From an uncultured Acidobacteriota bacterium (GTDB taxonomy: Bacteria; Acidobacteriota; Thermoanaerobaculia; Gp7-AA8), in assembly GCA_963822445.1 (NCBI GenBank), contig CAWGHO010000002.1, positions 1,888,001-1,952,000 of the forward strand: a stretch of 64,000 nucleotides of DNA, written 5' to 3'. Below the pieces are notes generated by a model, which worked only from the letters and a program-made list of their open reading frames with translations, was not told where the DNA came from and did not search any database. A program made the translations under genes and the position numbers. Of this stretch, positions 3,889 through 20,137 are shown piece by piece; within the stretch, counting starts at the first letter, position 1, and the number at the start of each line of letters is the position of its first letter.

Positions 3889-3934
3889 GAGCCGGAATGC
3901 TACACGCGCCAACGCTCGTTTTGCGTGTGCTCTC

Positions 3935-4594: not shown

Positions 4595-4598
4595 CGCG

Positions 4599-5081
4599 TC
4601 ACTCGGAATACCACTCCGAGATCGCGCTCACCACGCCCTTCCTCATGAAGATGCTCGTGTGCCGCGCGCATCCCTCGCTGACTCGGCAGATGAAGAAGTA
4701 CTCCGTGTCCCCGAGCCGTTTCTGATCCGCCTCGGGCGCCGCTGAGGCGTCCGGACGTCCAAGCCGCTCGACGATGCCGGGACTCGTTTGACCGAGCTCG
4801 ATTCCTGACCGCGCGCGCACGTCGATCTGCGGTCCTTGCTCCGGACGTTTGCACGGCGGTTCGGCGGCGAGCGTCACCCGCCACGGTTTCCTGTCCTTTT
4901 TGTCGATGGAAATCGCCAGATACCGGTCCGCGGAAAGCGCGTAACAGCCTTCCGATTTCAAGCCCGCAAACTGCTCCTGCAGCGTGGCCAGCGGTGTTTC
5001 CGCGAGCTGGTCCAGGTAGATCGGGTCGGCGGCGCGCGCACTCGTTGCCGTGAGAACCAGCAGCGCGACCGCGAGTCTCAT
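4599..5081 (-). CDS. Hypothetical exported protein (4 Cys)
   Basis: Signal peptide MRLAVALLVLTATSARA; ATGA overlap with the nadK stop. Confidence 0.7.
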   Translation of the reverse strand: MRLAVALLVLTATSARAADPIYLDQLAETPLATLQEQFAGLKSEGCYALSADRYLAISIDKKDRKPWRVTLAAEPPCKRPEQGPQIDVRARSGIELGQTSPGIVERLGRPDASAAPEADQKRLGDTEYFFICRVSEGCARHTSIFMRKGVVSAISEWYSE

Positions 5082-5965
5082 CCTTCGCCCCACTTCAACT
5101 TGGTGCGCAGCACGTCGAAGTAATTCTTTTCCGGGGACTGAACGAGCAGCACGCGCTCGTCGGACTTGCGGACGCAGACGCGATCCTTGTCGCTGATCTC
5201 GAAGCCTTCCTGGCCGTCGAGGGTCAGCCAGATGTCTTTGGCGTCGGGCGTCAAGAGGCCGATCTCGATGTCCAGTTCGTCCGGCAGAACGATGGGGCGG
5301 TTGGTGAGCATGTGCGGGCAGATCGGCGTGAGCACGAGCGCGCCCATGGTCGGATAGATGATCGGGCCGCCCGCGGACAGGTTGTAGGCCGTCGATCCTG
5401 TCGGCGTGCAGACGATCATCCCGTCGCCGCGGAACGTGGAGACGAACAGACCGGCGACGCTGACCCGCATCTCGATGATCCGGGCCACGGCGCTTTTATT
5501 GATGGCCGCGTCGTTGAGGACGCGATAGCGGCGGCTTGCATCGCGATCCGGTCCGCTGACCGAGACGGTGAAGGTGACCCGCGGCTCGACCTCGTAGTCG
5601 CCTTCGAGCACGCGATCGAGAACGGTCGGGAACTCCTCGACGCGAATCTCGGTGAGAAAGCCGAGCGTGCCCATGTTCACGCCGACGATCGGCACGTGTG
5701 CCGGAGCATGCCGCGCGATGGAGAGCAGCGTGCCGTCACCGCCGAAGGTGATCAGCAGGTCGCAGTGTTTCCCCAGCTCGGACTTCGGCACGGACTGCTC
5801 GTTTCCGTCCAGGTAGCCGGCTGTGTCGTCGTCGAAGATGACTGTGAATCCGCGGCCGCGCAGGTCGTTCGCGATCTGCTGCGCGTACGCGAGTGCCGGT
5901 TCGGCGGTGGTTTTTGCGGCCAGTCCAATCGTGCGCATGTCGTGTCGGGCCGCAGCGGAAGTCAT
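5078..5965 (-). CDS. nadK: NAD kinase
   Basis: GGDGT, GTLGFL, LND and TPTGSTAYNLSAGGP motifs; alternative start at 5938. Confidence 0.93.
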   Translation of the reverse strand: MTSAAARHDMRTIGLAAKTTAEPALAYAQQIANDLRGRGFTVIFDDDTAGYLDGNEQSVPKSELGKHCDLLITFGGDGTLLSIARHAPAHVPIVGVNMGTLGFLTEIRVEEFPTVLDRVLEGDYEVEPRVTFTVSVSGPDRDASRRYRVLNDAAINKSAVARIIEMRVSVAGLFVSTFRGDGMIVCTPTGSTAYNLSAGGPIIYPTMGALVLTPICPHMLTNRPIVLPDELDIEIGLLTPDAKDIWLTLDGQEGFEISDKDRVCVRKSDERVLLVQSPEKNYFDVLRTKLKWGEG

Positions 5966-7005
5966 GCCGGGGTCGCCGTGACGCGGCGGACCTCGTCCGG
6001 TCCGACCACGATCCGCTCGCCGGCGCGCTCCGGTCCGACGAAGAGAATCGGGTGCAGAACTTTCTCGATGATCGCTCGCAATGCTCTTGCTCCGAGGTGC
6101 TGTTTGCGGGCGGCGCTGGCGATTTCGTAGAGCGCGTCGCGGCTGAACTCGAGCTGGATCTGGTCGAGCGCGCAGAGGCGCTGGTACTCGGGAATCATGG
6201 CCTCGCGCGGCTCGGTGAGGATCGACACCAGCTCGTCGGGCGTGAGCTCGTCGAGCTCCACGCGCACCGGCAGCCGCCCGAGAAGCTCGGGCAGGAAGCC
6301 GTATTTGACGAGGTCGTCGGTGGTCACTTCATCGGAGCGGCCGGCGTTGTTGTCGAAGAAGCCGACGCTCTTCCCTTCGCCGGGATCGTCCATGTCCGAG
6401 AAGGAACCTGCGCAGATGAAAAGGATGTTGGAGATGTCGATCTCGACGTAGTCGTACTTGTTCCAGTGGGCGGTGACGTTCATCGGCACAAACAGCTTGT
6501 CCCCTTCGAGGATCTTGAGCAGCGACTGCTGCACGCCCTCGCCGCCGATGTCGCGCTGCCCCGCGCCGGTGCGCGCGCCGCCATTGCGCCGCGCGATTTT
6601 GTCGATCTCGTCGATGAAGACGATGCCGTTCTCTGCGGCGTCGACGTTCTGATTGGTGGCGAAGAGCAGGCGTCCGATCGCCACTTCGACGTCTTCACCG
6701 TAGTAACCGGCTTCGGTGAACGCGGTGGCGTCGTTGTACGCGAAGGGGACGTCGAGGATCTTCGCCAGCGTGCGCGCGAGATAGGTTTTGCCGCAGCCGG
6801 ACGGTCCGATCATCAGAATGTTCGACTTGCGGATGGAGACCTCGCCGCCGAACTTGAGGTACTCGATGCGCTTGAGATGGTTGTAGGCCGCGATGGCCAG
6901 AACCTCTTTGGCGTGGCGCTGCCCGACGACGTACTGATCGAGCTGTTCGAAGATGCGCCGCGGTGTGACGTGGAGGAAGCGGTAGATCTCGCGCTTTTCC
7001 TTCAT
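5962..7005 (-). CDS. ClpX-like AAA+ ATPase lacking the N-terminal zinc-binding domain
   Basis: [46 protein letters not shown] and GARALR are ClpX hallmarks; only 347 aa and no C4 zinc finger. Confidence 0.85.
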
Positions 7006-7069
7006 CAGGCGCCCGGGGCTGAGGATAGCACGGCGTTTTCGTCAAACCCCCTTTACACCGCCCTCCCAC

Positions 7070-7085
7070 GTCAAAAGTTTTTGAC
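7070..7085. promoter_or_regulatory. Palindromic putative operator GTCAAAA-gt-TTTTGAC in the divergent clpX-like/comEA intergenic region
   Basis: Perfect 7-bp inverted repeat overlapping TTGACA at 7081-7086. Confidence 0.4.
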
Positions 7086-7139
7086 AACCCTCAAAAGCTC
7101 AAACCACTGAATCCACGCAACTTAACTCCTGACACCCCA

Positions 7140-7155
7140 TGGCGGCCAGCTTGAA
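7140..7155 (+). promoter_or_regulatory. Sigma54-like -24/-12 element upstream of comEA
   Basis: TGGCGGCCAGCTTGAA (GG-N10-GA variant). Confidence 0.35.
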
Positions 7156-7313
7156 CTATGGCTCCCGCGAAAGGAGGTGGTTCGGTAGGAAAAAGCGAAA
7201 CGTGAAACCGGGACTTGGTCCGAGACAGACGGTTCAGTGTGGAACGAAAAACCAAGAGTCGAAACAACAACAACACAAACAAACAACCTGAAAAACGAAA
7301 GGAGATAAGACCC

Positions 7314-7685
7314 ATGCGGAAGTCCCTCTACATTGTCTTTGTCACTCTCATGCTCGCGGTGAGCTCGATCGCGCTCGCCGAGGAGGCCTCGCCGGCTGCT
7401 GGATCCCAGCAGGGTGTGGTCAACATCAACACCGCCGATGCCGCGCAGCTCTCGCTCCTCCCGCGCGTCGGTGAAAAGGCCGCCCAGCGGATCATCGAGT
7501 ACCGCACGCAGAACGGCCCCTTCAAGAAGACCAGCGATCTGATGCAGGTCAAAGGCTTCGGCGCCAAGACCTTCGAGCGCCTGGCCCCCTACATCTCCCT
7601 CTCCGGTCAGACCACTCTCGCCAAGAAGATCGCCAGCCCGCGCAAGCCGCGCGCGAAGAAGCCCACCGCCACGGCGTCGAACTAG
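7314..7685 (+). CDS. comEA: ComEA-like helix-hairpin-helix DNA-binding protein
   Basis: Signal peptide; VNINTA...LPRVGEKAAQRIIEYR...GPFK...DLMQVKGFG; Lys/Arg-rich tail; AGGAG RBS. Confidence 0.88.
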   Translation: MRKSLYIVFVTLMLAVSSIALAEEASPAAGSQQGVVNINTADAAQLSLLPRVGEKAAQRIIEYRTQNGPFKKTSDLMQVKGFGAKTFERLAPYISLSGQTTLAKKIASPRKPRAKKPTATASN

Positions 7686-7710
7686 ACGCCGCCCTCCACC
7701 CAACCCACCT

Positions 7711-7742
7711 GGGGCGGCCGCGCGGCGCGGCCGCCCCTTTTC
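7711..7742 (+). terminator. Intrinsic terminator between comEA and the pilin gene
   Basis: GGGGCGGCCGCG-cgg-CGCGGCCGCCCC followed by a T-run. Confidence 0.75.
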
Positions 7743-7774
7743 CCAACCCCGCAAACCAACAGAAGGAGAGACGT

Positions 7775-8368
7775 GTGTCTGAACGCCCCCGCAACGGCTA
7801 CACCCTCATCGAGCTCCTCACCGTCGTCGCACTCGTCGGCCTCTTCGCCGGCATCACTTTTCCGGCATTCGTCAACATGCAGCGGCGCGCGGCCCTGCGT
7901 GCGGCGGCCGGACAACTGCGCTCCATCTTTCATCTGGCCCGCTCGCGCGCACTGCAGCGCGGCTCCAACACCGGCGTGAAGTTCTTCCAGGCCGAAGGGA
8001 CGTGGCAGTACGCCATCTACGACGACGGCGATGGCGACGGCGTTCGCAACGACGACATCGATCGCCGCGTCGACAGGCGCGTGACTCTGCCGCGCCGCGC
8101 TCTGCCCGAATCGAAGATCGTGACCATCGGCCTGATGCGCCAGCCCATCAAGGATCCGGACGGCGATCGACTGCTGCCGGGCGCGTCCCCCGTTCACTTC
8201 AACCGCTCGGCGATCTGCTCCTTCACTCCGCTCGGCGAATCGACGCCCGGCACGATCTACATCACCGACCGCGGCGACGAGCTCTACGCGGTGCGCGTTT
8301 TCGGCGCGACCGCGAAAGTCCGCACGCTGCGTTACGACGCGGCCTCGCGCACCTGGAGGAACCGGTGA
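7775..8368 (+). CDS. GspH/FimT-like type IV minor pilin
   Basis: Prepilin cleavage motif G|YTLIELL plus hydrophobic helix; LARSRAL segment; AAGGAG RBS. Confidence 0.85.
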   Translation: MSERPRNGYTLIELLTVVALVGLFAGITFPAFVNMQRRAALRAAAGQLRSIFHLARSRALQRGSNTGVKFFQAEGTWQYAIYDDGDGDGVRNDDIDRRVDRRVTLPRRALPESKIVTIGLMRQPIKDPDGDRLLPGASPVHFNRSAICSFTPLGESTPGTIYITDRGDELYAVRVFGATAKVRTLRYDAASRTWRNR

Positions 8369-8373
8369 GAGCC

Positions 8374-9969
8374 TCACGCGCCCGCGCGGCGCACCACCAC
8401 CCGTTCCGCCTCGTACGTCTGAATCGCCGAGAGCGTGCTGCGGCGCAGCGCCTCGTCGGTGAAGGCGTCCGTGATCACCGCGCCATCCATGTCCCGGCCG
8501 ACCGGCAGTCCCGCGGCGTAGAGAATCGTGGGCACGACGTCGACCACGTAGGCGACGCGCGGATTCTCGCGATGGGTCACGCCCTCGCCGCGAACGAGCA
8601 GGAATCCATCGTCCGCGCCGGGATCGTCGCGCGTCACCGCGCGCATGGCGAAGGACCAGGCATCGGCCGGCAACTCCGGAGGCGTGACAGCGGTGGGCGA
8701 GCAGAGGACCAGCAGATGGCCGGGATGCTCGAGCGCGATTTCCGCCACCATCCGGTCGAGCTGCTGCACGTACGCTCGAACGGCCTGCCCCTTCATCGAC
8801 GTCTTCGGCGGCAGCTCGTTCGAGTAGATGTGCAGCGCGCGCTGGGCGCGCTCGAATCCATCCAGCGCCACCGCGGTGAATGCGGATCCTCCGTCCACCG
8901 CCGCGGCTGCGGCGAGATCGCGCTCGAGCTCCTGCAGCACGATCGCTTTCGCGGCTCCCGCGGCGTTGAAACGATCGGCGGCTTCTCCCACGCCGACGGC
9001 AGGACGCGCCGTCGTCGAAACCGCGTTCCAGCGCACGACCTTCGCGCTCAGCTGCAGACGCTGGAAGAGCTCCCACACCGGCAACGCCTCACCGGCCGGA
9101 AGCGGCGCGGAGATGCGCTCGACCGGCGGAACGAGGCCCCACGCGCGAAAGCCGACGCCGCTGGGCAGCAGCAGGAAGGGATCGTTGCGATTGAGCGGCG
9201 TGCGATACGAGAAGCGTCCGGTCACGCCGTGCCGGTATGGCAGCTTCCCGGTCGCCAGCGAAGCCCACAGCGACTTGGTACTCGTGGTCGGGAAGGGCTC
9301 GAGCCGGGCGAAGTAGGCGCGGTCGGTCACCTCTTCGAAGAAGGGCAGCGATCCCTCGCCCTTCATCGTCACGATCCAGTCGTACGGCAGATTGCGGATG
9401 GCCACGAGGATCACCGGCCGGTGCCCCGCCACTGCGCCGATCGTCGCTACGACGACATTTTTTCGCTCGGTCCGATAGCTCTCGCGGCGCTGGTAGAGAA
9501 AGAACGACGAGAGCGCGATCAGTACGACGCCGCCCATGAAGATCGCGCGCGAGATCCGCTTGCCGGCGTTGCGCTCGACGACCCACAGCGCGAGCAGCAG
9601 AAACGCCGTGACGGTGATGGCCGTGGTGGCCTTCGACAGGATGCGCACCGCGCCGATGGGCAGGTAGATGCGCACGACCTCGAGGTGAATCCAGTAGATC
9701 AAAGAGGAGACGAACGCCGCGGCCACGACGAAGCCGAAGCCGTACGTACGAACCGCATCGCCGAAAAGGCGCACCCGCAGCGCCCGCAATCCCCACAGCA
9801 CGGAGCCGAAGAGCAGGCCGCAGATGAGGCCGTACACGATGGTCACCGTGGCCAGGCGGCCCGGCGTGATCTCCACCTGCGGGTTGAGGAAGTACAGCAG
9901 GTGAGCCATGTACAGGCCGAAGATCGCGCCGGCGAGAACGCGTTTGAGATAGCCCCAGCGGATCTGCAT
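8374..9969 (-). CDS. Membrane protein with a C-terminal alkaline phosphatase-superfamily domain (degenerate)
   Basis: About five N-terminal TM helices; W.SLATGK.P..HG and DVVPTILYAAGLPVGRDMDG motifs. Confidence 0.75.
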   Translation of the reverse strand: MQIRWGYLKRVLAGAIFGLYMAHLLYFLNPQVEITPGRLATVTIVYGLICGLLFGSVLWGLRALRVRLFGDAVRTYGFGFVVAAAFVSSLIYWIHLEVVRIYLPIGAVRILSKATTAITVTAFLLLALWVVERNAGKRISRAIFMGGVVLIALSSFFLYQRRESYRTERKNVVVATIGAVAGHRPVILVAIRNLPYDWIVTMKGEGSLPFFEEVTDRAYFARLEPFPTTSTKSLWASLATGKLPYRHGVTGRFSYRTPLNRNDPFLLLPSGVGFRAWGLVPPVERISAPLPAGEALPVWELFQRLQLSAKVVRWNAVSTTARPAVGVGEAADRFNAAGAAKAIVLQELERDLAAAAAVDGGSAFTAVALDGFERAQRALHIYSNELPPKTSMKGQAVRAYVQQLDRMVAEIALEHPGHLLVLCSPTAVTPPELPADAWSFAMRAVTRDDPGADDGFLLVRGEGVTHRENPRVAYVVDVVPTILYAAGLPVGRDMDGAVITDAFTDEALRRSTLSAIQTYEAERVVVRRAGA

Positions 9970-9983
9970 CGCAGGAGCCGCCT

Positions 9984-12917
9984 ATGCTAACCCGCGAGCG
10001 TGTCGCCGCCGCTCACCCTCTCGACCTCTTCCGCGACCTCGGATACCCGATCGCCCCGATCGAAGTCGACCCGCAGGAATGGCGTCGCGGCGGCGTGACC
10101 ATTCCCTGGAACGGCGAAGCCCGTTTGCATCTCGCGGCGCGGCTGCGGCGCTTCGATCTGTTCCATCTGGAGGGGGAGGTTTCGGAGGAATGGATCGCGC
10201 AATTCATGCGCAGTTATGCGGATTACAACGCACTCACTAAATCAGCACTAATTTATAAGACATCATTATTCGATCTGAATGCAGATCGTTCCCTGCGCCG
10301 GCTCGATCTCACGGCCACCACCCACGCCGTCGATCGCCTCAACCTGCTCGCGTGCGGCGACGATCTTCCCCGGATCTTCGACCGCGCGCTCGATCGCGAA
10401 AGCGTCACCCGGCTGTTCTTCCAGCGATTCCGTTCCGCCGTTCGCGATGTCGCTTCGGCAATTACGCACGCGTGCCCGAAAGAAGCGACGGAGGCCGTCG
10501 ATGGCGAGGCGCTGCTGATTCTCTCCCGGCTCCTCTTCCTGTCCTTCGTTCAGGAAAAGGGCTGGCTGAACGGCGAGCGGCGCTTCCTCGTCGATCGGCT
10601 CGCTCACGAGATCAGCCGCGGCCGCGAGTTCTTCTCCAGCGTGCTCGTGCCGCTGTTCTTCGGCTGCCTGAACACGCCGCTGCACGAGCGAACGCTTTCG
10701 GCGCGGAAGCTGGGCCGCATCCCCTATCTCAACGGCGGTTTGTTCGAGCCCGCCGCATTCGAGCAGCGCAATCCGAAGCTCCATCTGCCGAACGAGTTGA
10801 TGCAGCGCGTGATCGAAGAGGTCTTCGAGCGCTTCGACTTCCGCATCGAGGAGACCGACACCGCCGGAACGCATGTCGATCCGGAGATGCTGGGCAAAGT
10901 CTTCGAATCGCTGATGGCCGCGGACGAGCGGGCGTCGAGCGGCAGCTTCTACACGCCGAGGGAAATCGTGGACATCCTCACCGAGCGCGCGGTCAGCGAA
11001 TGGCTCGCCGACGGCGGCGTGGAGCGGCTGGAGCAGATCACCGTGCTCGATCCGGCGTGCGGTTCCGGCGCGTTTCTGCTCTCCGCGCTGGGCACGATCG
11101 AGCGCCATTACAAACGGCTGACGGGAACGATCCCGCCCGATCTGAGGCAACGGATCGTGTCCCGGAACCTGTTCGGCGTCGATCTGAAGCCGGAAGCGGT
11201 TCGATTGTGCGAGCTGCGTTTATGGCTGGCGATCGTCGCGGCGACGGACGCGCCGGTGGAAATGGTCCAGCCGCTGCCGAATCTCGATCGCAACATCCTT
11301 CAGGGCAACTCGCTCCTCAGTCCGACCGATTTTCTCGGCGACGCACGCGCCGATATCTATGGCGAATGGGTGGTCGCGCTGCACGCGCAACGGAACCTGC
11401 TCGAGCGCTATCGAGCCGCGTCGCACGCCGAGCGCCCGGCGTTGTATCGCGTGATTCGAGGGAACGATCAGCGTCTCGCGGCGGACCTGCTCGCGAAGTC
11501 GATCGACGCCGCGGAGCGCGAGCTGCAACATCTCACCGCGCCGCAACGCGATCTCTTCGGACGAGCCGTAACTGCCGATGCGGAAGCTTGCCGCGCACTG
11601 CAGGAGCGGATCGCCGAGTGCCGGCGGATGCTGGAGAAGGTCGAGGAAGGCACGCTCGACTTCTTCTCCTTCGACATCCACTTCGCGCACGTCATGGCCG
11701 CAGGCGGCTTTCACATCGTGGCCGGCAACCCGCCTTGGGTGCGCAACAGCCGCATCGACGCGCGGGCCAAGCGGATGTACGCCGATCGTTATCAGCTCTT
11801 CCGCGGATACCGCGACGGCACGGCCTTCCATCAGCCGGATCTTTCGGTCGCCTTCTTCGAACGTGCCCTCGCTCTCACCGCGCCGGGCGGCGTGACCGCG
11901 CTGCTGATGCCGGCGAAGATCGCCAACGCCGCGTACGCCGGTCCGCTGCGACATGCCGCGCGCAAGCGGGGGCGCATTGTGGCCATCGACGACTGGAGCG
12001 ACGACCCCCGCCGCCACCGCTGGTTCGAAGCCGACACCTTCCCCCTCGGCATCGTCCTGGCCCGCGACGGCAAACGCGCGGACGTTCGTGTGACCGCCGA
12101 CGGCGAGTCGTTCGAGCTCGGCGAGTTGTCGCTCGGCTCGGAATGGGCGCTGGTGCCGCCCGAGATCGGCGCGATCGCACGGCGTCTGCGCGAGAAGTTT
12201 CCGCCGCTCGCCGTCGCTCTCCATCGCAAGCCGTTCATGGGTGTGAAGACCGGCGACAACCGCAGCTTCTTTCTCGACGATGCCGACATTCGCCGCTTCC
12301 GCATTCCACCGACGGCGCTCTGCCGGGCCGTGCGCGGACGCGATCTCGAACGCTGGACCGCCAACGAGTCGCAGTGGATGCTCTGGCCGCCGAAGAACGG
12401 CTGGACGAAGCCGCCGCGTTGGCTCGAGCGCCTGGCGGCCGAGCGTGGTCTGGCGCCGCGCGATTTTCGTTTGTCGTTCGTGCGGCCGGAGCACGTCGGG
12501 ATCAAGGTCGCATGGAAGGATTTGTCCCGCGGCATGGCCGCCGCGGTCTTGCCGGACATCGTGAACATCGACGGGCAGGCTTTCCCGCTCATCCCGAACC
12601 AGACGCTTTACGCAATCGACGCGGTCTCGCTCGACGAGGCGTACGTCATCGCCGCTCTGCTCAATTCGACGATCGCCGGCGCGCTGCTTCTCTGCACCGC
12701 CGAACGGGCGAAAGACGCGCATTACCGCTATTTCGGGCGCACCGTCGCGGCTCTGCCTTTGCCCGACATGGCCGGCGACTGGCAGGCGCTGGTTCGCGCT
12801 TCGCGGCGCGGCAATCTCACCGCCGTCGATCAGGTCGTGGCGAAGCTCTACGGTCTGAGCGAGCACGAGTCACAGCTCATCGAAGGATTCGTGCAGCGGA
12901 GACTCGGTGCTCGCTGA
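9984..12917 (+). CDS. Eco57I/type IIG-like N6-adenine DNA methyltransferase
   Basis: PYLNGGLF, DPEMLGKVFE, GSFYTP, LDPACGSGAFL (motif I), GNPPW (motif IV) and a C-terminal target-recognition-like region. Confidence 0.88.
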   Translation: MLTRERVAAAHPLDLFRDLGYPIAPIEVDPQEWRRGGVTIPWNGEARLHLAARLRRFDLFHLEGEVSEEWIAQFMRSYADYNALTKSALIYKTSLFDLNADRSLRRLDLTATTHAVDRLNLLACGDDLPRIFDRALDRESVTRLFFQRFRSAVRDVASAITHACPKEATEAVDGEALLILSRLLFLSFVQEKGWLNGERRFLVDRLAHEISRGREFFSSVLVPLFFGCLNTPLHERTLSARKLGRIPYLNGGLFEPAAFEQRNPKLHLPNELMQRVIEEVFERFDFRIEETDTAGTHVDPEMLGKVFESLMAADERASSGSFYTPREIVDILTERAVSEWLADGGVERLEQITVLDPACGSGAFLLSALGTIERHYKRLTGTIPPDLRQRIVSRNLFGVDLKPEAVRLCELRLWLAIVAATDAPVEMVQPLPNLDRNILQGNSLLSPTDFLGDARADIYGEWVVALHAQRNLLERYRAASHAERPALYRVIRGNDQRLAADLLAKSIDAAERELQHLTAPQRDLFGRAVTADAEACRALQERIAECRRMLEKVEEGTLDFFSFDIHFAHVMAAGGFHIVAGNPPWVRNSRIDARAKRMYADRYQLFRGYRDGTAFHQPDLSVAFFERALALTAPGGVTALLMPAKIANAAYAGPLRHAARKRGRIVAIDDWSDDPRRHRWFEADTFPLGIVLARDGKRADVRVTADGESFELGELSLGSEWALVPPEIGAIARRLREKFPPLAVALHRKPFMGVKTGDNRSFFLDDADIRRFRIPPTALCRAVRGRDLERWTANESQWMLWPPKNGWTKPPRWLERLAAERGLAPRDFRLSFVRPEHVGIKVAWKDLSRGMAAAVLPDIVNIDGQAFPLIPNQTLYAIDAVSLDEAYVIAALLNSTIAGALLLCTAERAKDAHYRYFGRTVAALPLPDMAGDWQALVRASRRGNLTAVDQVVAKLYGLSEHESQLIEGFVQRRLGAR

Positions 12918-14472
12918 GCATCAGACTGAGGCCGTTGCGCGATGTCTGGATCTTCTTCGCTCGCGCGGCGGCGTCATCCTCGCGGACGACGTCGGCCTCG
13001 GGAAGTCCTTCATCGCCGCGGAAGTGATGAAACGCTTTGCCGATGTCGACCTGATCGTCCCCGCGTCGCTCGTCGAGCAATGGCGGCCCATGACGGACGC
13101 GCGAATCCTCACGCACGGCGCGATCGTCAGCGATCCGTTCGTACCGCAACCCGGCGAGCGACTGGTCGTCGTCGATGAGGCCCACGCCTTCCGCAATCCG
13201 GCTACGCAGCGGTATGCCGCGCTGGCGCGACGAACAACAGCGGCGCGCGTCCTGCTAGTCACGGCGACTCCGGTCTGCAATTCAGCGAGCGACCTCGAGG
13301 CGTTGCTGCGCCTCATCGCACCCGACGACCTGCTGGCCGACCTCGGCGTCCCATCGATCGATGCCGCCTTCGAGAATCGCGACCGGGAGGCCATCGAGAT
13401 CATCGTCGGCGCGCTGGTCATCCGTCGCGATCGAAGCGTGCTGCCGCCGGCGTTGCAATTCGGAGAGCTGGAGCGCCGCGTCGTGCGCCATCCTGTTTTG
13501 AACGCGCCGATCATCGACGAGCTGCGCTTTCCGCTCGTCGGCGACCACGGAATCCTGCGGCGGTTTCTCTGGCGGCGTCTGGAGTCCAGCGAGGCCGCCT
13601 TGGCCGAGTCGGTCCGGCGGCAACTCCGCTTTTACGATCGCGCTCTCGATTGCATCGCCGCCGGCAGGGCGCTGCCGAAACGCGATTACCGCCGCGCGTT
13701 TGCACACGAAGAGGATCGCGATGCCTTTCAGGAAGTTCTGTTCTGGGAGCTGTTCGCGCCGGAAGGGGATGCTGATCCAGTGGCGATCCGCGAGGAGGTC
13801 GCGCGCCTGGAGGCGCTGCTCGCGCAACTCGCGGCTTCGACCTGCGAGAAACGGAGACTCTTGCTGGAGATCGTGGCCGCGGAATCAGAGCCGATGTTGA
13901 TCTTCACCGGCTCGGCCGCGACCGCGCGCGATCTTCACAAGGCCATTCCTCGAAGTGGATTGGTTACCGCGCGGGAGCGCTCGCGCGACGCCGTGCTCCG
14001 CGCCTTTCGCGAGGGACACCTCGACGTCGTGGTCTCCACGGACATGGCGGCCGAGGGGCTGAACCTGCAGCGGGCGGGGGTGGTGGTGCATTACGACATC
14101 CCCTGGAATCCGGTGAAGCTCGATCAGCGCAACGGCCGCGCGTATCGAATCGGCCAGAAGCGCGATCGCGTGCGGGCGATCTACTTTCTGCCGGAGTCGC
14201 GAGAAACGCGCATCGTCGAGACCATCGCCCGGAAGAATCGGATGAGGCGGCGAACGCTAATTGGGCAAGCAGCGGCCACACGCGAAGCGACCCTGCGTCC
14301 GCGACTCACGAAATCAGCCGCATACCTGGCTCTGGCCGCGAAATGGAAACTCCCCGACGGTCTCGCCCGGCGCCACAAAGCAGGCATCGAGCAACTCATG
14401 CTGGAGATGTCGCGCGAATATCTCGATCAGCGCCGCATCGACGATCTCATCGCGCTGTGTAATAGCGCTTGA
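12907..14472 (+). CDS. Compact SNF2-like superfamily 2 helicase/ATPase
   Basis: LADDVGLGKS, DEAH, TATP, EGLNLQ and YDIPWNP..LDQRNGR motifs; overlaps the methyltransferase stop. Confidence 0.88.
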   Translation: MLAEHQTEAVARCLDLLRSRGGVILADDVGLGKSFIAAEVMKRFADVDLIVPASLVEQWRPMTDARILTHGAIVSDPFVPQPGERLVVVDEAHAFRNPATQRYAALARRTTAARVLLVTATPVCNSASDLEALLRLIAPDDLLADLGVPSIDAAFENRDREAIEIIVGALVIRRDRSVLPPALQFGELERRVVRHPVLNAPIIDELRFPLVGDHGILRRFLWRRLESSEAALAESVRRQLRFYDRALDCIAAGRALPKRDYRRAFAHEEDRDAFQEVLFWELFAPEGDADPVAIREEVARLEALLAQLAASTCEKRRLLLEIVAAESEPMLIFTGSAATARDLHKAIPRSGLVTARERSRDAVLRAFREGHLDVVVSTDMAAEGLNLQRAGVVVHYDIPWNPVKLDQRNGRAYRIGQKRDRVRAIYFLPESRETRIVETIARKNRMRRRTLIGQAAATREATLRPRLTKSAAYLALAAKWKLPDGLARRHKAGIEQLMLEMSREYLDQRRIDDLIALCNSA

Positions 14473-15448
14473 CGACTTCCGCGGCCGGCTTGTTCTCGAT
14501 CTCGTAATCGTTGTCCGTCGGACCGCTGTGATCGAGACTCGAAAACCATTTCCACGGATACGCGCCGGCCAGCCACGGCTGCGGCCATACCGCCGCGAAG
14601 AACGCCTCGTACGCTTCGCGCTGTACGTCGAGATTCAGCGGCGCCGCCCGCGGCAGCTCCCACTGCCGCCAGGCGGCGCCGTCCGCGCTGCGGTAGCCGA
14701 TCTCGGTGAACAGAATCGGCCGCCGATGTTTCTTCGACAGAGCTTCGAGCCGCGCCAGCACCGGTTCCCACGCCTTCACCAGGGTCGCGCGATCGGGCGA
14801 CGGCGCATCGACGAGCGGAAAGTAGCCGCTGACGCCGATCCAATCCAGCGCGTCCCAGAACGCGACCCGTTCCACCTCGTCGAAATTCGCGCCGTAGGTC
14901 AGTGGACCTTTGTAGATCGTGCGGACGCGCTCGATGATCGCCCGCCACTCGCGCTCGTACCTCGTCGAGTGCTTCTGCTCGTTGCCGATGCAGAGCGCAT
15001 CGATCTTCGCGTCGCGCGCCAGCGTCGCGTAATGGGTGATGAACTGCTCGTAGGACGCGAACCACTTCCGCCAGTCCTCGTCCGTCCACCGCTCCATCGC
15101 CGCCTCGTCGCGAGCCCAGATGTGCGGCTTGAGCATGACTTTCATGCCGAGGGCGTGGGCCTGGATGGTGGCGCCGCGGAGGGAGGCGTCGTCCTCGTAG
15201 CCGCCCATTCGCACGCTCGGCTCGCTTCGCTGAAAGCCGAACGGCGTGATCGCGATCCAGTTCACCCCGTGCTCCCGCACTTTCTTCAGCGCCGCCGCGG
15301 ACGCCGGCGAGCCGTACCGGATGTCCATCGCGCGGGAGCGATCGAAGTCGCAGGCGTAGTTCATCCCCCGGTGCTTTTCCGCTGCGGGAAAGGTGGAACA
15401 GCCCGCGAAGACCAGTGCGACTAAAATCCTGCTGGTGAACCTCCTCAT
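14447..15448 (-). CDS. Glycoside hydrolase family 113-like TIM-barrel lipoprotein
   Basis: VMLKPHI, IGNE, YGAN.DE, IGVSGYFPL and ILFTEIGY motifs; FAGC lipobox. Confidence 0.8.
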   Translation of the reverse strand: MRRFTSRILVALVFAGCSTFPAAEKHRGMNYACDFDRSRAMDIRYGSPASAAALKKVREHGVNWIAITPFGFQRSEPSVRMGGYEDDASLRGATIQAHALGMKVMLKPHIWARDEAAMERWTDEDWRKWFASYEQFITHYATLARDAKIDALCIGNEQKHSTRYEREWRAIIERVRTIYKGPLTYGANFDEVERVAFWDALDWIGVSGYFPLVDAPSPDRATLVKAWEPVLARLEALSKKHRRPILFTEIGYRSADGAAWRQWELPRAAPLNLDVQREAYEAFFAAVWPQPWLAGAYPWKWFSSLDHSGPTDNDYEIENKPAAEVVKRYYTAR

Positions 15449-16850
15449 CGTCGACGACGAAGCCTCCCTGCGCGATTTTCTCAGCATCGTGTTCGAAGGC
15501 GAAGGCTGGAACGTCGAGTCGGCCGGCTCACTCGCCGAAGCGCGTGCCGAACTGCAGCGCGGCGAGCCGGACATCGTCCTCTGCGACCTGATGCTCCCCG
15601 ACGGCTCCGGCATCGATCTCATCCGTGAAGTGAAGGCCCAGACGCCATCCGTGCCCTTCGTGATGATCACCGCCCACACCTCGACGCGTTCGGCTGTCGA
15701 GGCGCTGAAGGCCGGCGCGATCGACTACATCGCCAAGCCCTTTGACATCGAAGAGCTGAAGCTGGTCGTGCGCAAGGCCGTCGAGCGCAAGGAGCTCGAG
15801 GACGAGAACGTCCACCTGCGCACCGCGCTCGAGGAGCGCTTCACCTTCTCCAACATCATCGGGCGCAGCTCGAAGATGCAGGAGATCTTCTCGATCGTCA
15901 GCCGCATCGCCAAGACCATGTCCACGGTCCTGATCTCCGGCGAGTCGGGCACTGGCAAGGAGCTCATTGCCCGAGCGATTCACTACAACTCCGATCGTCG
16001 CGGAAAGTTCGTCTCCATCAATTGCGGAGCGCTGCCCGAAACGCTGCTCGAATCGGAGCTCTTCGGCCACGAGCGCGGTGCATTCACCGGCGCGGTCCGC
16101 GACAAACGCGGCCTTTTTCACGAAGCCGATCGGGGCACGATCTTCCTCGATGAGATCGGCGAGACATCGACGGCGATGCAGATCAAGCTTCTGCGCGTGC
16201 TTCAGGATCGCGTGGTTCGTAAAGTCGGCTCGAACACGGAGGCTCTCGTCGACGTCCGCGTGATCGCGGCTACGAACGCCGATCTGTCGGAATCGATCAA
16301 GGCGGGAACGTTCCGCGAGGATCTCTTCTATCGCATCAACGTCATTCCCATCACCCTGCCGCCGCTCAGGCATCGCAAGGAAGACATCGCCCTGCTCGTC
16401 GATCACTTCATCGAGAACTTCTGCACGAAGATGGGCGTCCCGCGGAAGCGGATCTCGTCCGACGCCATGCGCGCGATCGAGAAGTACCACTGGCCGGGCA
16501 ACGTCCGCGAGCTGGAGAACGTGATCGAGCGGCTGATCGCGCTGGAAAGCTCGGAAACGCTCACCACGAAATCGCTCCCCGAGCATGTCCTCCTTGGCGG
16601 CCGCATCCCCGACGCCACGTTCGAGCTTCCGCCCGAGGGGTTGTCGCTGGAGGAGCATCTTCAGGCGATCACCAAGATCTTCATGCTCAAGGCGCTGGAG
16701 CGCGCCGGCGGCGTGCAGACCCAGGCCGCGGAGCTGCTGCAGATGTCCTTCCGCTCGTTCCGCTACTACGCGAAAAAGTACGACATCATCCCGCGGGAGC
16801 GGGAGCTCGAAGACGTGATCGAGCCGGCGAAAGAGGTGTTCGAAAAATGA
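15435..16850 (+). CDS. PilR/NtrC-family sigma54-dependent response regulator
   Basis: Receiver domain (VDDE), GESGTGKE, GAFTGA, WPGNVRELEN and a C-terminal HTH (SFRSFRY, PilR-like). Confidence 0.92.
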   Translation: MNLLIVDDEASLRDFLSIVFEGEGWNVESAGSLAEARAELQRGEPDIVLCDLMLPDGSGIDLIREVKAQTPSVPFVMITAHTSTRSAVEALKAGAIDYIAKPFDIEELKLVVRKAVERKELEDENVHLRTALEERFTFSNIIGRSSKMQEIFSIVSRIAKTMSTVLISGESGTGKELIARAIHYNSDRRGKFVSINCGALPETLLESELFGHERGAFTGAVRDKRGLFHEADRGTIFLDEIGETSTAMQIKLLRVLQDRVVRKVGSNTEALVDVRVIAATNADLSESIKAGTFREDLFYRINVIPITLPPLRHRKEDIALLVDHFIENFCTKMGVPRKRISSDAMRAIEKYHWPGNVRELENVIERLIALESSETLTTKSLPEHVLLGGRIPDATFELPPEGLSLEEHLQAITKIFMLKALERAGGVQTQAAELLQMSFRSFRYYAKKYDIIPRERELEDVIEPAKEVFEK

Positions 16851-17329
16851 AGCTGCTCTTCGTCGTACTCCTAGTGACCGCATGCTCGCAGCAGGCGCCC
16901 GCGCCTCCGCCCTCCGAGCCCGCGCCGGCGCCGGTCGCTTCCGGTCCGCGCGTGATTCTTCCGGACAACTCCGTGTACAGCGTCGAGATCGCGGCCGATC
17001 AGGATCTGCGCGCGCAAGGGCTCATGTATCGCGATCAGCTCCGGCCCGCGACGGGGATGCTCTTTTTCTTTCCGGCCGACGGCGATTACGGGTTCTGGAT
17101 GAAGAACACGCTCATCCCGCTGGACATGATCTGGATCGATTCCAACCGCAAGGTCGTGCACATCAAGACGGACGTGCCGCCGTGCAGGATCGAGCAGTGT
17201 CCGAGTTACGATCCGGGCGTCCCGTCGCGGTACGTGCTGGAGCTCGCCGCGGGTGAGGCCGCAAAGCACCGGTTGACGGTTGGTGACGTGCTGCGGTTCG
17301 AAGGAATGGATAACGTCGTAGTTCGTTGA
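16847..17329 (+). CDS. DUF192 family lipoprotein
   Basis: VTAC lipobox; GLMYR, GMLF, FWMKNTLIPLDMIW and YVLEL motifs. Confidence 0.88.
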   Translation: MKLLFVVLLVTACSQQAPAPPPSEPAPAPVASGPRVILPDNSVYSVEIAADQDLRAQGLMYRDQLRPATGMLFFFPADGDYGFWMKNTLIPLDMIWIDSNRKVVHIKTDVPPCRIEQCPSYDPGVPSRYVLELAAGEAAKHRLTVGDVLRFEGMDNVVVR

Positions 17330-18239
17330 AACTGGCAATGTTCCGGTTCCGAGGCGAGAACCTCCGCTCCGTTTTCATTCTCCTGTTCCTGAACGTCGCG
17401 TTCTTTCTGCTCGAGCATCAGGACCCGGAGAAGTACGCGCGGCTCTTCCGATTCGATGCGGAGGCCGTCGCGGGGGGGAGGTGTGGCGTCTGGTCACGTA
17501 CCAGTTCACGCAGGCCGGAACGGGATGGATGGAAGCGCTCTCGCTTTTCATCACCCTGCTGTTGCTCTACATGATGGGCTCCGCGCTCGAAGAGGAATGG
17601 GGTACCTGGAACTTCCTGGTCTTCTTCCTGGTCTCGGCGCTGACCACCGCCGGTGTCGCGGCCTACCTCGGCATCCCGCTCCTGGGCACGTACTTCGTCT
17701 ACTTCACCCTGCTGTTCGTGTACGCGTCTGCATTTCCGCAGCAGACGTTCTACCTGTTCGGGATGATGCCCGTGCGCGTGCGGATGCTCGCCGCGTTCTC
17801 GCTGGCCGTGCTCGTTTACGGCGTGTTCAGCGGAGGAATGGCGAATCTCGCCGCGCTGGCCGGTGCGACGGCGGCGTACTTTTACTATCTCTCCCATCGG
17901 ATCCGGATTCGGATCGTCACGACGACCGCCGAGGCCGAGGAAGAAGTGCCGCAGGTGCGGATCGACACGACGCCGATTCACAACGCGGCGCGGTTCACGG
18001 CGATCAAGCAGGCCATTGCGACGCAATCGGATTCGGATGTCGAACGGTTGCTGACGCAGTGTGAGCGGGAAGTGGTGGCCGGCGTGAACATCTGCCCGCC
18101 GGTCGACTACAAACCCGAGAACGCGGATGGCTACTGCGTGCGTTGCGAGGGGTTCGCGGAATGCTCGGCGCGGTATCTGCGCGCGCACCGGCCGGCTACG
18201 GCGCCGGCGGCGTTGCCGGTGCCGGACGCGTCTACGTAG
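17326..18239 (+). CDS. Rhomboid-like membrane protein with a Cys-rich C-terminal domain; frameshifted in a G-tract at 17472-17478
   Basis: Two overlapping frames join as AVAGGEVWRLVT if one G is added; GSALEEEWG motif. Confidence 0.65.
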
Positions 18240-18337
18240 GGGAGCGGCCGTCCCGGCCGCCCTCGGCGGGCATCCTGCCCGACGATTCAGCACCGGGCAG
18301 GCTGCCCGGTGCGATGCGAGCGGGACGCTTGCTCCCC

Positions 18338-19018
18338 TCAGGTCGCTGGTGTGTCGCCCCCACCCTCACCACCCGGCCCACCACCCCCGCCGCGACGGCG
18401 GCGGCGGAAGCGACGGCGTTTGCGGTCGCCGCCGCCTTCGCCGGGTGGGCGGTCGGGGCGCGGCGGCTTTGGCGCTTCAGGGGACGCGGCGCCTTCGGGC
18501 CGCGGAGGACGTTCGGGACGGGGAGGACGCTCCGGACGCGGAGGTCTCGGCTGCTGCGGCTGCTGTTGCTGGCGTTCCGGCTGCGGCGGCCCACCGGCGG
18601 ACGGACCGGCTCCGCCGCGACCGCGACGACGCCGTCTGCGGCTGCGAGAGGTCTGATCACCAGCAGGCTGGCCCTGGACTTGTTGCTGTTGCTGTTGCGG
18701 TGGTCGCTGCTGCTGCGGAGGCCGCTGCGGTTGCGTGCGTTGTTGCTGCTGCCCACCGCCGCGCTGGCGATCCTTCTGCCGCTGCTGAGGATTCGGACGG
18801 TCGCCGCGGCCCGGACGATCGCGCCGCGGCTCGTCCGCGGGGCGTGTCGCCTTGCCCGTCCGCTGCTCGAACTCGCGGACTTTCTTTTCCATGAACCGCC
18901 GCGCCTGCTGTTCGAGCTTCTGCCCGGTCGCGTTGTAACCGCAGTACGGGCAACGCTGCCACCCCTCGGGATAGGTCTTCTTACACGACGTACAAAGAAT
19001 GCTTTTCGGGAGCGGCAT
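18338..19018 (-). CDS. Zinc-ribbon protein with a long low-complexity Arg/Pro/Gln/Gly tail
   Basis: CTSC...CPYC at the N-terminus; PQQQR, RPERPP and poly-R tracts. Confidence 0.7.
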   Translation of the reverse strand: MPLPKSILCTSCKKTYPEGWQRCPYCGYNATGQKLEQQARRFMEKKVREFEQRTGKATRPADEPRRDRPGRGDRPNPQQRQKDRQRGGGQQQQRTQPQRPPQQQRPPQQQQQQVQGQPAGDQTSRSRRRRRRGRGGAGPSAGGPPQPERQQQQPQQPRPPRPERPPRPERPPRPEGAASPEAPKPPRPDRPPGEGGGDRKRRRFRRRRRGGGGGPGGEGGGDTPAT

Positions 19019-19052
19019 CGCGAATCGGCGCGCATTGTACACTCCGGATTCC

Positions 19053-19241
19053 ATGGACGAAGGCCGCCGCCGGACGCTGTTGGAGCTCATCGAACTGGCC
19101 GATGAAAGCTCGCCCGGGGCGTGCTGGGACGACGCGCGGGCCATCCAGTTGCTGCGCAGTCAGACCACGGCGGACGAGCTTCGCGAGCTGGGGGCGTCCG
19201 AGGGGCTGATCGAGCACGTTTTCGCGGAGAGTCATGGGTAA
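19053..19241 (+). CDS. Small hypothetical protein
   Basis: 62-codon ORF after a TACACT -10-like box; overlaps the start of the next gene. Confidence 0.55.
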   Translation: MDEGRRRTLLELIELADESSPGACWDDARAIQLLRSQTTADELRELGASEGLIEHVFAESHG

Positions 19242-19614
19242 GTACAGCGTGCGGGTCGAAGCGCGTTTCGAAGCCGCTCACTTTCTTCGCGAGTACCGTG
19301 GGATCACCGAGCCGCTGCACGGCCATTCCTACAAAGTCGAAGCTGACCTTTCGGCGCGTGGCGGTGGGGTCGATTCCGACGCGATCGCCGTCGACTTCGT
19401 CAGTGCGAAACGAAAGCTGGACGTGCTGGCGAAGAAGCTCGACTACGGCTGCATCAACGACATCCCGCCCTTCAACGAAGTGAACCCGAGCGCGGAGAAC
19501 ATCGCTGAATGGTTCGCGCACGAGCTGCAGACCGCGATCCAGGATGAGAACGCGATCGTTACCGCGGTGACGCTCTGGGAAGGGCCGGTCAACTCGGTCA
19601 CCTACACGCCATGA
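19234..19614 (+). CDS. 6-pyruvoyltetrahydropterin synthase/QueD family protein with an ExxHGH (PTPS-III-type) motif
   Basis: FEAAH, EPLHGHSY, VDF, NPSAENIA and LWE motifs. Confidence 0.85.
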   Translation: MGKYSVRVEARFEAAHFLREYRGITEPLHGHSYKVEADLSARGGGVDSDAIAVDFVSAKRKLDVLAKKLDYGCINDIPPFNEVNPSAENIAEWFAHELQTAIQDENAIVTAVTLWEGPVNSVTYTP

Positions 19615-20135
19615 ACAAGCTCCCGAATCACACCGCGCTCAAGGAATGGTCGAACGTCATCGAAGCCCTCGGCCGCGGCGAGCAGGTCATCCTCATCCGC
19701 AAGGGCGGCATCGCCGATCCCCACTTCGGAATCGAAGCCGATCGCTTCTATCTGTATCCGACCTACTTTCATCAGGGCGAGACCGATCCGCGCTCGCGCG
19801 TGTCGATCACCCACTGGTGCGAGGTGACGCGGACGTGGAGCGTTCGGGACATGGAGTCGATCGAGCGGCTCGAGCCGTTCGTCGACATTCCGCGGGAGAC
19901 GCTGGAGGCGCGGTACCGGTTCCGGCCCGACCAGGCGCTTTACGTGATTGCGGTGAAGACCTTCGCGTTGCCGGGGCCGGTCGAGATCGCGTATCGCGAG
20001 GATTACGGCGGCTGCAGAAGCTGGGTCAGCATCGAGGAAGAGATCGATATCGAGGGATCGAAGCCCGTGCTCACCGACGCCGCACTGCGCGCGAAGATCG
20101 AGAGCATCGACGCATTGCTCACAGTCGCGGTGTAG
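19611..20135 (+). CDS. DUF1802 family protein
   Basis: ALKEW, LIRKGGI, FYLYPT.FHQ and YGGCRSWV motifs. Confidence 0.85.
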   Translation: MNKLPNHTALKEWSNVIEALGRGEQVILIRKGGIADPHFGIEADRFYLYPTYFHQGETDPRSRVSITHWCEVTRTWSVRDMESIERLEPFVDIPRETLEARYRFRPDQALYVIAVKTFALPGPVEIAYREDYGGCRSWVSIEEEIDIEGSKPVLTDAALRAKIESIDALLTVAV

Positions 20136-20137
20136 CC

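Follow-up and report, generated by a model that had tools for sequence, protein, structure and literature searches.

In a 64,000-nucleotide stretch of the genome of an uncultured Acidobacteriota bacterium (class Thermoanaerobaculia; assembly GCA_963822445.1, contig CAWGHO010000002.1), here called the window, two overlapping genes encode an N6-adenine DNA methyltransferase (MTase) and a Swi2/Snf2 ATPase, hereafter the helicase. Methyltransferase-helicase pairs are normally read as defence systems and are expected to be patchy and mobile; in contrast, this pair is core-like across an order of bacteria, and many genomes of a second phylum, the Gemmatimonadota, whose soil members are abundant and poorly studied, have it as well. 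The pair itself is the unit, with no third gene conserved across phyla. We favour, with roughly even confidence, the reading that it is a chromosomally fixed, nuclease-free module derived from a restriction-modification (RM) system, with the Snf2 motor acting in the methylation of the cell’s own DNA.

An initial annotation of the window had described two overlapping genes, a 977-aa N6-methyltransferase with DPACGSG and NPPW motifs and a 521-aa helicase with its main motifs intact, and had seen no nuclease, no mobility genes and a host-like composition; open reading frames (ORFs), Pfam matches and motifs agree with this description throughout. The genes overlap by 11 nt, and a GGAG sequence inside the MTase frame lies 5 nt 5′ of the helicase’s GTG codon, an arrangement that, as read from the sequence, is the one expected for translational coupling. 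In 14 orthologous loci the ORF coordinates place exactly the same 11-nt overlap at seven junctions (L015, L017, L018, L019, L020, L024 and the G016 locus L026); four others overlap by 1 to 35 nt, and three have a gap of 6, 18 or 40 nt. The GC content of the pair (0.63-0.67) falls within that of its flanks (0.61-0.69). No tRNA gene was found within positions 1-30000 of the window, no direct repeats flank the pair, and the ORFs scanned from 2224 to 20878 include no integrase or transposase. Regular-expression searches of both proteins found no HKD, HNH or GIY-YIG motif, and the only loose PD...(D/E)xK strings fall inside the MTase fold. A promoter scan of 9400-15000 returned 0 sites, and the five terminator-like sites in the same interval are within chance (shuffle mean 3.4).

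The MTase is, according to its model, built like a Type IIL enzyme, with an N-terminal domain (N-domain), a helical spacer, a gamma-class methyltransferase and a target-recognition domain (TRD). It matches the Pfam families Eco57I (1.7e-19; 71 bits against a cut-off of 25.3), N6_Mtase (2.4e-14), MmeI_Mtase (1.2e-8) and, weakly, MmeI_hel, with Eco57I profile positions 2-162 (161 positions) spread across residues 395-668. Motif I (DPACGSG, aa 356-362) precedes motif IV (NPPW, aa 582-585) and the TRD is C-terminal, which is the order of gamma-class N6-adenine MTases of the Eco57I/TaqI kind; both motifs are invariant in 60 homologues. An AlphaFold model made from a 60-sequence alignment (pLDDT 89.9, pTM 0.87) has the fold common to BrxX/PglX, MmeI, LlaGI and DrdV. 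In the VIA structural comparison, residues 1-921 of the BrxX chain lie on model residues 137-977 and LlaGI residues 647-1569 on 114-957, and the TRD aligns with those of CamA, TaqI and BseCI. The helical spacer has its equivalents in the helicase-spacer of MmeI, the N-terminal helical domain of BrxX and the region that precedes the MTase in Type ISP enzymes, which we take to be the part called the ‘coupler’.

That no nuclease is visible calls for one qualification. Where MmeI and DrdV have their nuclease, the MTase has an alpha/beta domain of about 135 residues, the N-domain, but this has no conserved catalytic set. Among 60 sequences, the candidate columns vary: D58 is D/E in 31 and K/R in 21, E63 is D/E in 27, and K86 is K/R in 29. 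No column of residues 21-135 holds a conserved D/E or K in alignments of 60 and of 40 homologues; the near-invariant positions of the N-domain across the 40 are only M1, L15, G20, R53 and L119. Two arginines are better kept among the 60 (R53 in 51; R105 as R in 51 and as K/R in 55). Searches of 14 N-terminal pieces against Pfam returned nothing at E <= 10, MmeI_N included, and the whole-model VIA rows barely reach residues 1-136. The nearest ESM Atlas clusters are MmeI_N at 0.85, and a nuclease-like fold is on this basis a lead only. A profile of the N-domain, searched over 1.84 billion representatives, matched 535 representative clusters at E <= 0.001; in all 150 matches listed it stands at the extreme N-terminus, these matches are solely the family’s own N-termini, and the full-length proteins among them have about 1000-1200 aa. 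The MTase thus shares the helical spacer, methyltransferase and TRD architecture of MmeI and lacks its active N-terminal PD-(D/E)xK nuclease. From the alignments we conclude that the N-domain is a family-specific domain, in all likelihood catalytically dead, in the nuclease position, and that its retention is probably due to a role in binding DNA or the helicase.

The helicase has SF2 motifs I-VI and Snf2-type lobes and so belongs to the Swi2/Snf2 family (Pfam Helicase_C 2.1e-18, SNF2-rel_dom 1e-12), whose members translocate on duplex DNA with no unwinding. Its GLGKS, DEAH and QRNGRAxRxG motifs, the last present in the window as QRNGRAYRIGQ, are invariant in sets of 15 and of 41 homologues. 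The protein starts directly at the motor, whereas its nearest longer relatives place an N-terminal PLD domain before the same motor. Deeper relatives have a C-terminal extension of ~200 residues, in which four strands are followed by long helices and by one more strand at the end; the window’s genus has lost the beta part, and only the terminal helices remain. Alignment of the homologues revealed no invariant residues in this extension that would hint at a nuclease. PHROGs gave domain-level matches only, including a DarB-like antirestriction protein at 1.4e-6 on the C-terminal lobe of the helicase.

Within the window’s order the pair is near-universal, single-copy and syntenic. Full-length helicase orthologues occur in 22 of 24 same-genus genomes (66-81% identity) and in three genomes from two other families of the order (40-50%); in 13 genomes from other orders of the class the helicase finds weak matches only, the best at 4.8e-19. 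A helicase profile matches 115 of 121 sampled genomes of the order (82 of 86 of high quality, 42 of 43 genera), nearly always once, and the N-domain profile matches 113 of the same 121; both are present in 111, neither in 4, the helicase only in 4 and the N-domain only in 2, and the single absences inspected (G001, G253) coincide with contig ends. These tallies take in four genomes marked unpublished (G002, G220, G228, G274). In 14 fetched loci the order of the block is NAD kinase, ClpX-like ATPase, ComEA-like protein, pilin-like protein, alkaline-phosphatase-like protein (on the opposite strand), MTase-helicase, sigma-54 regulator and DUF192. The pair is present in 14/14, the left flank in 13/14 (L026 begins at a contig end) and the right flank in 12/14; three of the loci come from other families, at 37-46% identity, and still keep the left flank and the pair. 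The 6-Mb window genome, 94.7% complete, was searched with five Pfam families and holds the pair’s MTase and one HsdM-like gene only, with no Dam, CcrM/N6_N4 or C5 methyltransferase. The MTase combines the two marks of a lineage-core solitary (‘orphan’) methyltransferase, conservation and the lack of a cognate nuclease, the latter having been searched for nearby only. The HsdM-like gene lies at G000:C3:798442-799446 (N6_Mtase 1.3e-60).

A scan across phyla, with one genome per species, yielded 80 loci, 26 of them titled Thermoanaerobaculia or Acidobacteriota; the other 54 come from Gemmatimonadota (Gemmatimonadales, Longimicrobiales), Myxococcales, Bradymonadales and one metagenome-assembled genome titled ‘proteobacterium’. 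In 76 of these loci the MTase gene lies directly upstream of the helicase gene and in the same orientation, and the remaining four of the 80 are cut by contig ends. Outside Thermoanaerobaculia the flanks are a HAD hydrolase, an aminotransferase, an aldehyde dehydrogenase, PhoU, a beta-lactamase-family protein and anti-sigma/DUF4097 genes, and in eight such loci that were scanned there is no nuclease, no integrase and no third shared gene. The Gemmatimonadales have a synteny of their own: of the 80 loci, 20 carry the HAD hydrolase, 18 the aminotransferase and 17 DUF4097. In a second clade the pair is flanked by DUF402 and PhoU. The helicase profile matches 103 of 151 sampled Gemmatimonadota genomes (E <= 1e-30; one of them, G095, unpublished), mostly in one copy. 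Some Gemmatimonadota also carry a second, more distant MTase (L107 in G099 and L109 in G171, about 3300-8400), which is 28-30% identical over residues 316-585. Behind it comes a longer Snf2 helicase, whose frame spans about 1400-1500 aa, and the two may be another relative of the pair, one of the defence type.

A FastTree phylogeny of 60 MTases resolves one clade each for Thermoanaerobaculia (31 rows) and Myxococcota/Bradymonadales (5 rows), both with support 100, and for Gemmatimonadales (15 rows), with support 99. Because the synteny is conserved, the profiles are so distributed and the MTase tree is coherent by taxon, we conclude that inheritance of the pair has been mostly vertical within each lineage. 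Same-genus orthologues are 68-71% identical in the MTase and 64-80% in the helicase, and the neighbouring genes span 42-90%, with the ClpX-like ATPase highest. Conservation of the TRD comes close to that of the catalytic domain (identity 0.70 vs 0.77 within the genus and 0.43 vs 0.50 between families), with no sign of the switching in specificity that defence methyltransferases typically show.

Two lines of argument thus meet in the reading that we favour. The anatomy points to an ancestry in translocase-coupled or Type IIL restriction enzymes, and the pair probably descends from an RM enzyme of the MmeI, Type ISP or BREX-PglX kind whose nuclease chemistry was lost; the distribution points to a stable chromosomal function. 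We infer from these a physical complex of the two proteins, ATP-dependent methylation, the cell’s own DNA as substrate and a housekeeping role. In such a machine the MTase would recognise a specific, probably asymmetric, site through its C-terminal TRD and methylate one adenine at N6, and the Snf2 partner, a double-strand DNA translocase, would probably be docked on the N-domain and the helical spacer. ATP could be spent in moving the MTase along DNA, in clearing or remodelling DNA for site access and base flipping, or in gating recognition. The output would be an N6-methyladenine mark on the chromosome with no cut, for regulation or post-replicative maintenance. A more specific form of this idea, which we put forward tentatively and hold to be less probable than not, is that the pair is a bacterial counterpart of the SNF2-dependent DNA methylation of Dnmt5 and DDM1/HELLS: by this analogy the Snf2 motor would be obligatory and would gate site recognition or base flipping, and a domesticated Type IIL/ISP-like enzyme would maintain an epigenetic mark in the core genome of an Acidobacteriota order and of much of the Gemmatimonadota. 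Each half of the favoured idea has a reported precedent: CamA as a core orphan methyltransferase (PMC8187626) and Dnmt5 for ATP-dependent methylation (10.1101/2020.01.05.895227).

Several observations weigh against a housekeeping role. Every sequence family that partly matches the pair is a defence component, namely type IIG REase-MTase, DrmMI and PglX for the MTase and DrmD, DpdE, BrxHI, ZorD and PLD-Snf2 for the helicase, and the nearest longer helicase relatives bear an N-terminal PLD nuclease. Defence systems can become fixed in a lineage, and no nuclease is known by which BREX restricts. Four of the 86 high-quality genomes of the order have no helicase match, so that the pair is dispensable in some genomes. 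The MTase tree is a FastTree tree with an arbitrary root, and TRD conservation was assessed as percent identity only. In addition, genome G240 (L115, G240:C74 2727-6397) has an 837-aa MTase homologue with neither N-domain nor helicase; its context looks mobile-element-like, which suggests that the wider MTase family has mobile members. G240 belongs to the same family and is 100% complete, and the canonical locus was not found in it; the homologue is 49% identical, begins at query residue 145 and is flanked by genes for a RadC-like JAB protein and an endonuclease VII-domain protein. That N-domain and helicase are missing together here is an anecdote that fits an N-domain kept for binding DNA or the helicase.

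The foremost rival, which we consider rather unlikely, is a minimal system against phages or plasmids, of the BREX, DISARM class 1 or Type ISP kind, that has become fixed and is either nuclease-free or has its nuclease in trans. In it the MTase would mark self, and the Snf2 motor would be loaded onto incoming DNA at sites that lack methylation, to stop replication there or pass the DNA on to nucleases of the host. The partial matches just listed speak for it, as do the fold shared with BrxX/PglX, MmeI, LlaGI and DrdV, the PLD-Snf2 relatives at 27-37% identity and the example of BREX. DISARM class 1 adds a precedent, in that DrmD and DrmMI are reported to be adjacent and to contribute to protection against one phage (10.1101/2021.12.28.474362). 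However, no defence model reaches its cut-off (DrmD 126 vs 610 bits, PglX 55 vs 400), no DrmA/B/C, BrxC, PglZ or PLD protein was found among the window’s scanned ORFs or in the eight outside loci scanned, and the pair has no defence-island or mobility neighbours. Defence genes are usually patchy, often transferred and fast-changing in specificity; this pair is near-universal, single-copy and syntenic in its order, with a taxon-coherent tree, a housekeeping-like rate of evolution and a conserved TRD. Between the two possibilities that the initial annotation had left side by side, a minimal defence system and a domesticated module, the second fits this distribution better, though not in the DNA-uptake role that had been proposed for it. 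We give less weight still to a transcription- or repair-coupled remodeller, which seems improbable: the Snf2 motor would act on stalled RNA polymerase or on replication/repair intermediates, like RapA or Mfd/CSB, and the MTase would mark DNA that the motor has passed or serve as its DNA-targeting subunit. The top Foldseek match of a modelled helicase homologue is indeed Escherichia coli RapA (8spg at 8.5e-15, and 6bog; about 960 aligned columns), and the C-terminal extension of deeper relatives resembles the published description of the RapA/BrxHII C-terminal domain (PMC12839542), a likeness in the order of secondary structures only, the extension of the Gemmatimonadota helicase lying outside the VIA rows. 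Against this, VIA ranks generic Snf2 remodellers level with RapA or higher, the NCBIfam RapA model gives 55 bits against a cut-off of 576, the helicase begins at its motor with no Tudor domain or RNA polymerase-binding N-terminus, and in the window it has lost most of the extension in question.

A module linked to competence, one that would move and methylate transforming DNA as it enters, in concert with ComEA and a FimT-like pilin, is, in our estimate, very unlikely. The comEA and FimT-like genes that the initial annotation pointed to are real; they lie 1.6-2.7 kb upstream of the pair and are kept there in relatives, ComEA in 13 of the 14 fetched loci and 17 of the 26 Thermoanaerobaculia loci, the FimT-like gene in 9 of the 14 and 14 of the 26. 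Neither is near the pair in any of the 54 loci from Gemmatimonadota, Myxococcota and the ‘proteobacterium’ genome, so the conserved linkage that a role in DNA uptake would call for fails outside the lineage. Inside it the adjacency is unspecific, because the whole Thermoanaerobaculia region is syntenic, including such unrelated genes as those for NAD kinase and the ClpX-like ATPase. An oppositely oriented membrane-protein gene also separates the genes for ComEA and the pilin from the pair, with which they share no operon, and both MTase and helicase are predicted to be cytoplasmic. Transforming DNA enters single-stranded, whereas Snf2 motors and methyltransferases of this kind act on duplex DNA. 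We read the competence neighbourhood as coincidental, and the functional link to DNA uptake is not supported. Least probable of all is an inactive remnant of a decayed RM system. An N-domain with no catalytic set and the loss of the helicase’s C-terminal subdomain in the genus would suit decay, but both reading frames are intact, the MTase motifs do not vary among 60 homologues, nor the ATPase motifs among 41, from three phyla, and the pair is kept in 115 of the 121 genomes of the order.

The features discussed here are collected in the table below. The membrane-protein gene between the pilin and the pair starts 14 nt from the MTase start and is divergent from it, which means that the promoter of each has to sit within the other. 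Its product has several N-terminal transmembrane helices and adjoins the pair in Thermoanaerobaculia loci only; it has no match in PADLOC, NCBIfam, PHROGs or PDB sequences, and the residues at its usual metal-ligand positions seem altered (‘AIRNLPYDW’, ‘DDGF’). PglZ was considered as an identity for this protein and rejected, since PADLOC, NCBIfam and PDB sequences give no support and the gene is unlinked to the pair outside the lineage. The ‘PilR-like activator’ of the initial annotation is an NtrC-family sigma-54 response regulator, and no test supported the PilR label. A sigma-54 response regulator (36-41% identity to the window’s) also lies about 2-3 kb downstream of the helicase in four Gemmatimonadales loci (L058, L078, L083, L095); the family is common and this may be chance. 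The NCBIfam ClpX match of the ClpX-like ATPase begins at profile position 59, its N-terminal zinc-binding domain is apparently missing, and it is 84-90% identical in same-genus genomes. The GH113 ORF and the helicase overlap by 26 nt at their 3′ ends, and the first ~90 codons of the GH113 ORF are an antisense shadow of the response-regulator gene; the GH113 gene is missing at this position in many relatives and is thus a variable insertion in an otherwise fixed block.

Features of the methyltransferase-helicase locus and its neighbours (positions in the window)
Feature	Position	Strand	Remarks
MTase gene	9984-12917	+	977 aa, ATG start
AGGAG ribosome-binding site	9973-9977	+	6 nt before MTase ATG; read from sequence
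N-domain, aa 1-135	9984-10388	+	alpha/beta by secondary structure; position of MmeI/DrdV nuclease
Helical spacer, aa 136-290	10389-10853	+	MmeI_hel 5.2e-4, DUF7814 2.4e-4
Catalytic MTase domain, aa 291-690	10854-12053	+	motif I DPACGSG 11049-11069; motif IV NPPW 11727-11738
Family-specific three-helix insertion, aa 445-560	11316-11663	+	inside catalytic domain
TRD, aa 691-930, and C-terminal helices, aa 931-977	12054-12914	+	
Coupling junction	12898-12917	+	GGAG 12898-12901; helicase GTG 12907-12909; MTase TGA 12915-12917
Swi2/Snf2 ATPase (helicase) gene	12907-14472	+	521 aa, GTG start
Helicase motif, Walker A GLGKS	12994-13008	+	
Helicase motif, DEAH	13174-13185	+	
Helicase_C	13849-14154	+	
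Helicase helical tail, aa 431-521	14197-14469	+	
ClpX-like AAA+ ATPase	5962-7005	-	347 aa
ComEA-like HhH protein	about 7314-7685	+	real gene; context only
FimT/GspH-like prepilin	7775-8368	+	‘GYTLIELL’; context only
Membrane protein with alkaline-phosphatase-superfamily domain	8374-9969	-	531 aa; Phosphodiest 1.6e-6; context only
GH113 glycoside hydrolase ORF	14447-15679	-	converges on helicase
NtrC-family sigma-54 response regulator	15393-16850	+	

These results have implications under either of the two leading explanations. Should the pair prove to be a housekeeping machine, it would give bacteria their first case of DNA methylation that depends on an ATP motor, and would clearly exemplify the conversion of a restriction system to epigenetic use. 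Should it prove to be a defence system, it would be a minimal one of two proteins and no nuclease, and the way in which BREX-like systems halt phage with no cut would become much easier to study. In either case, the family’s roughly 500 representative clusters at present bear generic names only. The parts of the pair, an MmeI/BREX-type methyltransferase and a Snf2 motor, are known; their combination in a nuclease-dead, two-gene, vertically inherited module is new, and the literature searched, which did not cover subscription journals or REBASE, contained no description of the pair or of its core-genome distribution.

Comparison with known defence systems gave partial matches only: no PADLOC or NCBIfam model passes its cut-off for either protein. 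The locus is, as first described, a two-gene MTase plus Snf2 unit in which no nuclease was detected. The PADLOC matches are REase_MTase_IIG (4.9e-36), DrmMI (8.2e-24) and PglX (8.7e-16) for the MTase, and DrmD (8e-31), BrxHI (1.5e-27), DpdE, PLD-Snf2 and ZorD, mostly on the C-terminal lobe, for the helicase. The NCBIfam scores are likewise short of their cut-offs for DISARM_DrmD (126 bits vs 610), BREX_2_MTaseX (55 vs 400) and RapA (55 vs 576), and PLD-Snf2 scores 102 bits. Among the neighbours of the pair, the genes that accompany such components in BREX, DISARM, Dpd and Zorya systems were not detected.

The known systems differ from the pair in distinct ways. In comparison with MmeI of Type IIL (IIG), the MTase has no conserved D...ExK in its N-domain and no MmeI_N Pfam match, and it carries a 115-residue helical insertion; MmeI has no ATPase partner and its family is sporadic, whereas here an ATPase is paired with the MTase and the pair is core-genome. 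In the Type ISP enzymes LlaGI and LlaBIII a single polypeptide runs nuclease-helicase-MTase-TRD, and its Mrr-like nuclease is active; the pair consists of two genes, MTase then helicase, with a Snf2-type motor and no active nuclease found. Among 120 longer relatives listed there is no MTase-helicase fusion, and long open frames in G104 and G114 that had been candidates for fusions proved to be overlapping frames of separate genes. The NCBIfam models for BREX PglX have cut-offs of 400-900 bits and score the MTase at 37-55. The N-domain is missing from BrxX, BrxHII (types 3 and 5) combines a Tudor domain with a RapA-like architecture of ~940 aa, and BrxA/B/C, PglZ and BrxL were not found near the pair in the window or in the eight outside loci. 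DISARM class 1 is alike in its adjacent Snf2-like helicase (DrmD) and N6-adenine methyltransferase (DrmMI) (10.1101/2021.12.28.474362), and DrmD is the best partial match of the helicase in both PADLOC and NCBIfam. It differs in the length of DrmD (about 1000 aa), in gene order and in its sporadic defence-island context, and its DrmA/DrmB (DUF1998)/DrmC (PLD) core is absent from the window’s scanned ORFs and from the eight outside loci. Hma (helicase-methylase-ATPase) is a triad of HmaA, HmaB and HmaC; the HmaA profile matches the C-terminal lobe of the helicase only (3.7e-20), HmaB and HmaC are not among the top 25 matches listed, and no third ATPase gene adjoins the pair across phyla.

The closest likeness of the helicase is to the PLD-Snf2 anti-phage helicases (NF042964; PADLOC ‘HKD+Snf2’), which are its nearest longer relatives among those listed (P0009, for example, is 28% identical over query residues 2-441); they have an N-terminal PLD nuclease of about 250 residues, whereas the pair’s helicase has neither PLD domain nor HKD motif. 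On the side of methylation, the core orphan adenine methyltransferase CamA of Clostridioides difficile, which is reported to have regulatory roles (PMC8187626), has 577 aa and lacks the N-domain, the helical spacer and an ATPase partner. Fungal Dnmt5 is reported to methylate DNA only with ATP hydrolysis by its fused SNF2 domain (10.1101/2020.01.05.895227). Dnmt5 and DDM1/HELLS serve eukaryotic cytosine-C5 methylation, fused or in trans, and their relation to the pair is that of a working analogy rather than of membership.

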